A stretch of DNA of 64,000 nt from Escherichia coli (GTDB lineage: Bacteria; Pseudomonadota; Gammaproteobacteria; Enterobacterales; Enterobacteriaceae), in NCBI RefSeq assembly GCF_003019035.1, contig NZ_CP027447.1. One strand, 5' to 3'. Shown here in pieces: positions 58,092-59,199 of the stretch (the stretch's first letter is position 1; each line of letters begins with the position of its first letter). The position numbers were made by a program, and so were the translations under genes. The notes under the pieces were generated by a model that was not told where the DNA came from, did not search any database, and saw nothing but the letters and a program-made list of their open reading frames with translations.

Positions 58092-58934
58092 TTATCGTGA
58101 TTTTGTCGACGTAAAGCGATAAAAAAGATTGGGTTCGCCAACTATATAGATGTTGCCACTGGCATCCATCGCTATCCCTTCCGCCTGCTTGATATTGTGT
58201 GAAAGGCCATACCTGCCTTTGGTTAACGACATTTCGCCGATCACGTCACCTGTCACGGTCACTTCCTGCAGGGCGCGTGACTCATGTGACAACACCAGCA
58301 ACGTATTTTTATGTGGGTTAAATTCCGCGCCAGAAACATCGTCTAAAGTAAACTGACGCTGCAACGCTTTATCTTTGCTGATATGCAACTCATCGCTACG
58401 CAATAGCCCGGTTACTTTGTAGACCTCTATCGGATTTTTCTCTTTAAAAAACCAGAAGGTATGGTCCTGAGAGGAGTAAGCCAGCCCTTCAAAGCCACAG
58501 TTAGTTGGTGTTTCCTGCAATGGGATTTTAATTTTTTTGAGGATGCTTACTTCCGACTCAGCGTTAAGTGAAATCACATAAATGGCGTAGTCACGTTCAT
58601 CACTGATGACAAATTTATTATCACCAATGTATTCAATCGTCTCGAGATCCTTAACAAAATCGAGCGGAATGGTGCGGATCAGGTCACCCTCGGTCGTCAT
58701 TTCAACGATGGTTGCAGGTTTGTTGATAGTGCTAAATAAGGTATTGCTCTGCGCAGACCAGGTCAGTGAGGAGATATTTTTAGTTACTCCTGTAATCTCT
58801 TTACCATCGATAGTGGCCTGATAATTCTGAAACCCTGCGACATGCTGGCTTTTACGGACGCAGGATTGCACAAAAAACAGGCTTACCGCCACGATGGCGC
58901 AAAGAAAAACGATAAAGGTGATGCGCTTTTTCAA
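58092..58934 (-). CDS. yjiK: SdiA-regulated-domain protein YjiK
   Basis: ORF track 58092..59081 has no plausible Met upstream of the signal peptide. A TTG at 58934..58932 preceded by AAGGAG gives a 280-aa product beginning (M)[20 protein letters not shown]... Confidence 0.65.
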
Positions 58935-59199
58935 CTTGTTGCTCCTTATTATTGCTTTTTTCTCGTCAAATTCAGTGCGACAGATAAGGAGTATACGGAT
59001 GAAGCTTAATGAATTCTTAACGCGGGCGATGAAATAGTAAACGCCGCAGGGGGCGGCGGTTGTCTCTGGATGGCAGAACATTTTCAGCTTACATCGACTG
59101 ATAAATGCGCCTCATCCATGAATGATAGATGAGGCGGTTAACGTTTAAATGTTAATTTATATCCTCTGCCATACCCACTCTGTTTGGGTGATTATTGAA

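Follow-up and report, generated by a model that had tools for sequence, protein, structure and literature searches.

Genes and features at the yjiK locus

The window, by which we mean the whole 64,000-nucleotide stretch of Escherichia coli DNA analyzed here, contains a yjiK-family gene followed 68 bp downstream by yjiJ, encoding an MFS transporter, in the same order as in strain CFSAN061771 and in K-12, with espX6, a gene for a pentapeptide-repeat T3SS effector, lying upstream (Table 1). Because it is found directly upstream of yjiJ as in K-12, and has the PF06977 and 3qqz matches given below, the gene is the positional orthologue of K-12 yjiK, in the form of a divergent allele. Nucleotide identity over positions 58000–59300 was 99.2% to CFSAN061771 and 97.8% to O157:H7. 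The length of espX6 differed between strains, with a 657-aa open reading frame in the window, 665 aa in CFSAN061771, 731 aa in O157:H7 7409 and a frameshift in TR01. Beyond yjiJ, close relatives carry the inverse autotransporter gene iatD (L001/L002 4166–4301), frameshifted in O157:H7 7409, while the K-12 neighbour beyond yjiJ is kptA and the upstream neighbour of K-12 yjiK is ytiA/yjiL in place of espX6; the neighbourhood of the close relatives thus differs from that of K-12 on both sides of the yjiK–yjiJ pair.

The encoded protein matched the PF06977 'SdiA-regulated' profile over positions 5–249 of its 249 (E = 1e-90, 303.8 bits), a whole-domain match that makes it a member of this family, and PDB entry 3qqz (YjiK) aligned to residues 28–278 (E = 4.5e-144), with the PDB construct beginning just after the lipobox. 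As regards the 'SdiA-regulated' name, Pallen et al. (PMC1084347) describe only where it comes from. A scan of the 329-aa form, discussed below, against NCBIfam gave no family at E ≤ 0.01.

Table 1. Positions in the window of the genes and sequence features discussed in the text.
Feature	Position	Strand	Basis or remark
yjiJ	56846-58024		MFS transporter gene
yjiK-family CDS from TTG	58092..58934	-	280 aa + stop; PF06977; RefSeq 843-bp CDS at equivalent position
Lipoprotein-type signal peptide (predicted), codons 1-25	58860..58934	-	PROSITE PS51257-type rule; lipobox Cys codon 58862..58860
TTG initiation codon (proposed)	58932..58934	-	Minus-strand read; annotated start in 10/10 RefSeq relatives inspected with the same allele
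Shine-Dalgarno TAAGGAG	58942..58948	-	7 nt 5' of TTG; anti-SD duplex −8.5 kcal/mol
ATA codon, rejected as start	58950..58952	-	Older 286-aa GenBank annotation (MIRSNKL...); aligns with GTG/ATG start of other alleles
A-tract, presumed 5' UTR	58956..58961	-	A6 to A9 between strains
Upstream block CGCGTTAAGAATTCATTAAG..CGTATACT	58988..59024	-	Common to all Escherichia yjiK alleles; candidate promoter/operator
GC-rich terminator-like hairpin CGCCGC-CCCCU-GCGGCG, then UUUACUAUUU	59042..59058	-	Terminator scan and folding
Upstream in-frame ATG, rejected as start	59079..59081	-	Frame, SD, homology and coding-signature evidence
12-bp hairpin	59108..59136	-	Downstream of espX6 stop codon 59202..59200
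espX6	59200-61173	-	Pentapeptide-repeat T3SS effector gene

The TTG codon and its Shine–Dalgarno sequence

The sequence-only reading of this locus had held that yjiK probably initiates at a TTG preceded at good spacing by AAGGAG, and that no ATG lies between the signal peptide and the in-frame region upstream. On both sequence points we came to the same result. The minus-strand sequence at the start is ...aataAGGAGcaacaagTTGaaaaagcgc, with AAGGAG at 58947..58942, extended to TAAGGAG from 58948, and a spacer, caacaag, of 7 nt; between the upstream stop codon and the signal peptide the only canonical in-frame start codons are the ATG at 59081 (codon −49) and the TTG at 58934. The next canonical in-frame start after the TTG is a GTG at 58892, within the hydrophobic core. 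The two strands of the window together hold 14 copies of AAGGAG, where composition would predict ~31; a start codon follows 4–10 nt downstream of five of them, and four of these open ORFs of at least 60 codons. As SD-dependent initiation demands of a TTG, GTG or ATG, the TTG lies 4–10 nt downstream of a complement to the 16S 3'-end.

When pairing to the anti-SD sequence was calculated over the 20 nt upstream of each candidate, the TTG gave −8.5 kcal/mol, a strength reached by only 1.3% of 20-mers drawn at random from the window, compared with −3.0 kcal/mol for the ATA codon and −1.1 kcal/mol for ATG 59081. The local RNA fold (±30 nt) was likewise weak around the TTG (−6.2 kcal/mol) as compared with ATG 59081 (−14.4 kcal/mol). 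Of the three canonical start codons, TTG is the one that E. coli uses least, which counts against this choice, and so does the fact that most other yjiK alleles start six codons further upstream, at GTG or ATG, whereby a relocated start is needed in the allele of the window.

Predicted signal peptide and lipobox

For the N-terminus we applied a PS51257-type rule, requiring a lipobox of the form [LIVMFWSTAG]2-[LIVMFYSTAGCQ]-[AGS]-C with the Cys at residues 15–35, no charge in the six preceding positions and a Lys or Arg within the first 7 residues. Translation from the TTG conformed to this rule, with the sequence MKKR at the N-terminus and FVQS|C ending in Cys25, as did translation from the ATA (Cys31), whereas the forms starting at the ATG (Cys74) or at the internal GTG codons did not. 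The FFVQSC lipobox was conserved in all Escherichia yjiK alleles, and YjiK has been counted among 114 predicted E. coli lipoproteins (PMC7139219). Substitutions relative to K-12 yjiK were distributed over the codon positions as 37/18/122 in the whole gene and as 5/3/13 in codons 2–25 (the L009 allele, having a one-codon deletion, was left out of this ungapped comparison); with divergence so biased to third positions, codons 2–25 are evidently coding and the constraint already begins at the signal peptide.

Alignment of YjiK orthologues, proposed together with the TTG start as a means of checking it, favoured the TTG: in every orthologue, including those of Citrobacter, Superficieibacter, Intestinirhabdus and an uncultured Enterobacteriaceae genome, 4–13 residues stood ahead of the hydrophobic core, and in most of the non-Escherichia orthologues an in-frame stop codon was found 1–17 codons upstream of the first ATG. 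Lipobox-like motifs were seen in the more distant orthologues of Enterobacteriaceae UBA5654 (GLYS|C, L015 2459 onward) and Intestinirhabdus alba (CAAA|C, L018 2471 onward), while a cysteine is missing at this position from most Citrobacter orthologues, which resemble signal-peptidase-I or signal-anchor proteins. The YjiK family may thus include members that are not lipidated.

The spacer between espX6 and yjiK

The RNA of the espX6–yjiK spacer is predicted to be strongly structured, with −39 kcal/mol for a 111-nt region (z = −5.1 against shuffles). The GC-rich hairpin at 59058..59042, having 6 GC pairs, a 5-nt loop and the tail TTTACTATTT, appeared in the MFE and centroid structures alike, and its stem was kept between strains while the length of its loop varied. 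With a GC-rich stem-loop directly followed by a U-rich tract, it has the sequence of an intrinsic terminator and is predicted to be one. ATG 59081 sits between this hairpin and the 12-bp hairpin, the former being located within the would-be N-terminal extension. Scanning positions 58000–59400 against Rfam gave nothing significant, the sole match (E = 0.56) being at chance level and far below the gathering score.

Sequence shared with the K-12, E. whittamii, cryptic-clade and other Escherichia alleles starts at about 59024 (CGCGTTAAGRATTCATTAAG...CGTATACT), ~90 nt upstream of the TTG. The block at 59024..58988, nearly invariant overall, showed invariant columns across 8 alleles irrespective of which gene lies upstream, and it holds a TTAAG-N6-TTAAG direct repeat together with a −10-like TATACT at 58995..58990. 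Between 59100 and 58934 no sigma-70 site emerged from a consensus promoter scan, in which TTAAGA-19-TATACT was passed over because of its 19-nt spacer. We infer that this block is the best candidate for a promoter or operator of yjiK's own, and it may be the operator/promoter of an activator-dependent gene. Should it be the promoter, the TSS would be expected near 58985..58981 and hence downstream of ATG 59081.

Some other candidates were considered and rejected. A possible −35 element, TTGACG at 58969..58964, has no −10 hexamer at workable spacing. A genomic-SELEX paper reported RpoD holoenzyme binding upstream of K-12 yjiK, with an in-silico promoter CTGACC-19-TACAAT; this promoter lies inside K-12 ytiA (L003 1293–1323) and has no counterpart DNA in the window, and was therefore rejected as the promoter of the window allele. 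A relic of the ytiA 3'-end around ATG 59081, hinted at by a MAFFT alignment, was unsupported by the multi-allele alignment, in which homology began only at ~59024. On the plus strand, two short antisense ORFs extend over the start region (58842–59009, 55 aa, and 58894–59037, 47 aa) with no sign of being genes.

Length polymorphism between the ATG and the TTG

A 176-nt query spanning from the ATG to the TTG matched 635 E. coli genomes, of which an evenly spread sample of 59 was measured. The matched stretch was 176 nt long in 34 of these, and longer by 1 nt in 11, by 2 nt in four, by 3 nt in three, by 4 nt in two and by 5 nt in five. The interval was consequently off by a non-multiple of three (+1, +2, +4 or +5) in 22 of the 59 genomes, about a third, and in those genomes the ATG and the gene are in different frames. 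Aligning nine lineages, we found every indel at one of two sites, namely the loop of the GC-rich hairpin (a C-run, with CAACT in M00057) and the A-tract. All nine had the same TTG, and seven the same SD, which a single G-to-A change turns into AAGGAA in the other two strains. In N18-04097 the frame was open for only 24 codons upstream, with no ATG there.

Some of these homopolymer length differences may be assembly errors, since neighbouring genes in TR01 and yjiK itself in JNEC-KY204 are frameshifted, but real polymorphism is argued by the agreement of lengths within a lineage, both O145 strains being +1 and four of the five +5 strains sharing identical identity and bit scores (M00057 was the one inspected among them). 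The runs concerned are the A-tract at 58956–58961 and the C-run of the hairpin loop at 59047–59053 (C5, C6, or CAACTCCCC); their variation may in part be sequencing error and is in part consistent within a lineage.

Alternative start codons

The longest ORF in a mechanical listing, 58092..59081 on the minus strand, starts at the sole in-frame ATG and would yield a 329-aa protein in which the hydrophobic segment, preceded by a 49-residue N-terminal extension, would be an internal signal anchor. Gene callers have produced this exact protein from 9 Logan contigs, and the 34 sampled genomes with an unchanged interval, the window among them, keep the frame open, but the frame breaks in the 22 genomes described above speak against it, as do the poor anti-SD pairing, which leaves this ATG with no SD, and its burial in the −14.4 kcal/mol structure. 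We trained a codon-usage score on 28 long ORFs of the window and applied it in 49-codon chunks, whereupon the extension scored −0.001, at the 1.1 percentile, compared with an average of 0.32 ± 0.13 for real chunks in the window and 0.27–0.46 for the five chunks of yjiK after the TTG. The extension is thus without coding signature, and it contains the terminator-like hairpin. The sequence-only reading had described it as about 50 non-hydrophobic residues, which is roughly correct for its 49 residues with a net charge of +4, except that a patch, SFIRILLIC, is mildly hydrophobic; the highest 15-residue Kyte–Doolittle mean was 1.21 in the extension as against 3.14 in the core of the signal peptide. 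No orthologue has a comparable extension, and the lipobox cysteine would fall at residue 74. Moreover, ATG 59081 falls beyond the stretch of homology with other yjiK alleles; as this homology starts at ~59024, with contexts differing further upstream, the codon is part of the espX6 flank and lies outside the yjiK unit. That the frame stays open as far as this ATG would then be fortuitous, the espX6–yjiK spacer being non-coding. A start at the ATG is already largely refuted and we consider it exceedingly unlikely.

Two further positions have been used by annotators. Initiation at ATA 58952..58950, six codons upstream of the TTG, would give a 286-aa form, as long as K-12 YjiK and starting at the same position, that still conforms to the lipobox rule; such an N-terminus is found in P0123, P0124 and P0133 (286 aa), P0123 being represented on 396 contigs, and in older GenBank O157:H7 records, and the codon is aligned with the GTG or ATG start of the other alleles. 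ATA is, however, a very poor initiator in E. coli, the upstream anti-SD pairing is modest, and the strong SD lies downstream of the ATA, placed to serve the TTG, all of which makes the ATA very unlikely as start; the 280-aa form has also replaced the 286-aa form in current RefSeq. The internal GTG codons at 58892 (266 aa) or 58871 (259 aa) would give a cytoplasmic product having no signal peptide, and some gene callers do choose the latter, as seen in Logan cluster P0002 (259 aa, MQSCVRK..., 48 member sequences). Against such a start, the GTG at 58892 has no SD (+1.2 kcal/mol), the KKR and hydrophobic segment encoded upstream are conserved at the amino acid level with synonymous-biased divergence, and an N-terminal hydrophobic segment is present in every orthologue; internal initiation can hardly be entertained at all.

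Discussion

Translation of yjiK in the window very probably starts at TTG 58934..58932 and not at the ATG upstream, as comparative and computational evidence and the RefSeq annotation all support what the sequence-only reading had proposed. Directly shown here are the features of the sequence itself, how they are conserved, the polymorphism that breaks the frame, the absence of a coding signature from the extension, and the annotation already in place. The 30S subunit would be recruited and positioned by TAAGGAG in an A-rich, weakly structured leader, with initiation at the TTG, and the product would be a 280-aa precursor encoded by a divergent allele of yjiK adjoining the T3SS-effector gene espX6. 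Its first 24 residues are predicted to form a lipoprotein-type signal peptide, in which MKKR serves as n-region and the hydrophobic core spans 17 residues, with the lipobox VQS|C at the end; from this cysteine the precursor reads CVRK. Cleavage by LspA would then leave a mature beta-propeller (PF06977, 3qqz) lipidated at Cys25. With Val rather than Asp at position +2, Lol-dependent sorting of this protein to the outer membrane would be probable. The positions of the promoter and the terminator are likewise predictions.

The TTG start is already given in current RefSeq annotation, so that the finding is known and ordinary. Among inspected relatives having this allele, 10 of 10 RefSeq CDSs begin at the TTG, with RefSeq start sites being computational calls themselves. 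Intact CDSs of 843 or 840 bp starting at the TTG are annotated in CFSAN061771, O157:H7 strains 7409 and TR01, N18-04097, O145 RM9873, WP4-S17, DA33133, M00057 and O169:H41; in JNEC-KY204 the CDS annotated from the TTG measures 842 bp and is marked as a frameshifted pseudogene. The exact 280-aa sequence of the window is already in NCBI, UniRef and other sources (P0121). For this one allele, public databases nevertheless carry four N-termini, i.e. 329 aa from the ATG, 286 aa from the ATA, 280 aa from the TTG and 259 aa from an internal GTG. In the TRAINSPOTTER N-terminomics supplements yjiK (P39382) was absent, and in literature on ECs5294, ECs5295, Z5934, Z5935 and espX6 we found no mapping of the start or TSS.

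The relevance of the start assignment lies mainly in annotation hygiene, with no biological concept changed. A functional lipoprotein signal peptide arises only from the 280-aa form and, formally, the 286-aa form, and a wrong start would mislead localization prediction, construct design and proteomics searches for what is a conserved uncharacterized envelope protein, whose gene in EHEC and lineages related to it neighbours one for a type III effector. There is also a more speculative reading, which we think improbable, whereby the start of yjiK has moved within one species: the espX6-linked allele would have lost the upstream GTG or ATG start (now ATA), which in most Escherichia alleles follows a weak SD, and gained the TTG with its near-consensus SD, and tuning by the A-tract together with an operator for a dedicated regulator in the conserved block would amount to allele-specific rewiring of expression. 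If true, with A-tract length tuning translation or mRNA stability and the block being an operator for which SdiA is the obvious candidate, this would be a small natural case of rewired expression of a surface lipoprotein beside a T3SS effector gene.

Comparison with known yjiK genes and TTG-initiated genes

K-12 YjiK (b4333, 286 aa, WP_001350572) shares with the window gene the position directly upstream of yjiJ on the same strand, the PF06977 beta-propeller and the FFVQSC motif, and 3qqz is the structure of a close homologue of the K-12 protein. At 84% amino acid and ~79% nucleotide identity, the two nonetheless represent distinct allele classes. K-12 yjiK likewise has a non-ATG start, a GTG, and an older, longer ATG-initiated form of 323 aa (P0021) is on record. 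This GTG lies six codons upstream of the position of the TTG in the window, K-12 having TTA where the window has TTG and the window having ATA where K-12 has GTG, and the K-12 start is therefore not directly transferable to the window; the SD is also stronger in the window (−8.5 vs −5.1 kcal/mol). GTG at the upstream position, with the non-start TTA at the position of the TTG, is found in K-12, E. whittamii and others, while MOD1-EC7003 and E69 have ATG there. The start codon has been replaced in the course of the genus's history: most alleles begin with ATG or GTG at codon −6, where the espX6-linked allele has ATA, its TTG and strong SD being new. The start regions compared were window 58932–58952, L003 1477–1497, L011 2483 and L009 1207.

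Some E. coli YjiK proteins (P0003 and P0004) look mosaic, with a K-12-like N-terminus (MTKSSSLSKRISVIV...CARKSNHAAS) and a C-terminal half resembling that of the window, which suggests possible recombination between the two allele classes. The RefSeq proteins WP_122988697.1 and WP_000746206.1 (SdiA-regulated domain-containing or YjiK family, 280 aa), from CFSAN061771 and O157:H7, have the same allele with the same TTG, and nothing substantive differs between them and yjiK of the window. Compared, finally, with canonical SD-led TTG-initiated genes of E. coli, yjiK of the window is alike in its near-consensus SD, 7-nt spacing, A-rich leader and a TTG that would be decoded as fMet, with no known difference, and its proposed start is in this sense uncommon but conventional.
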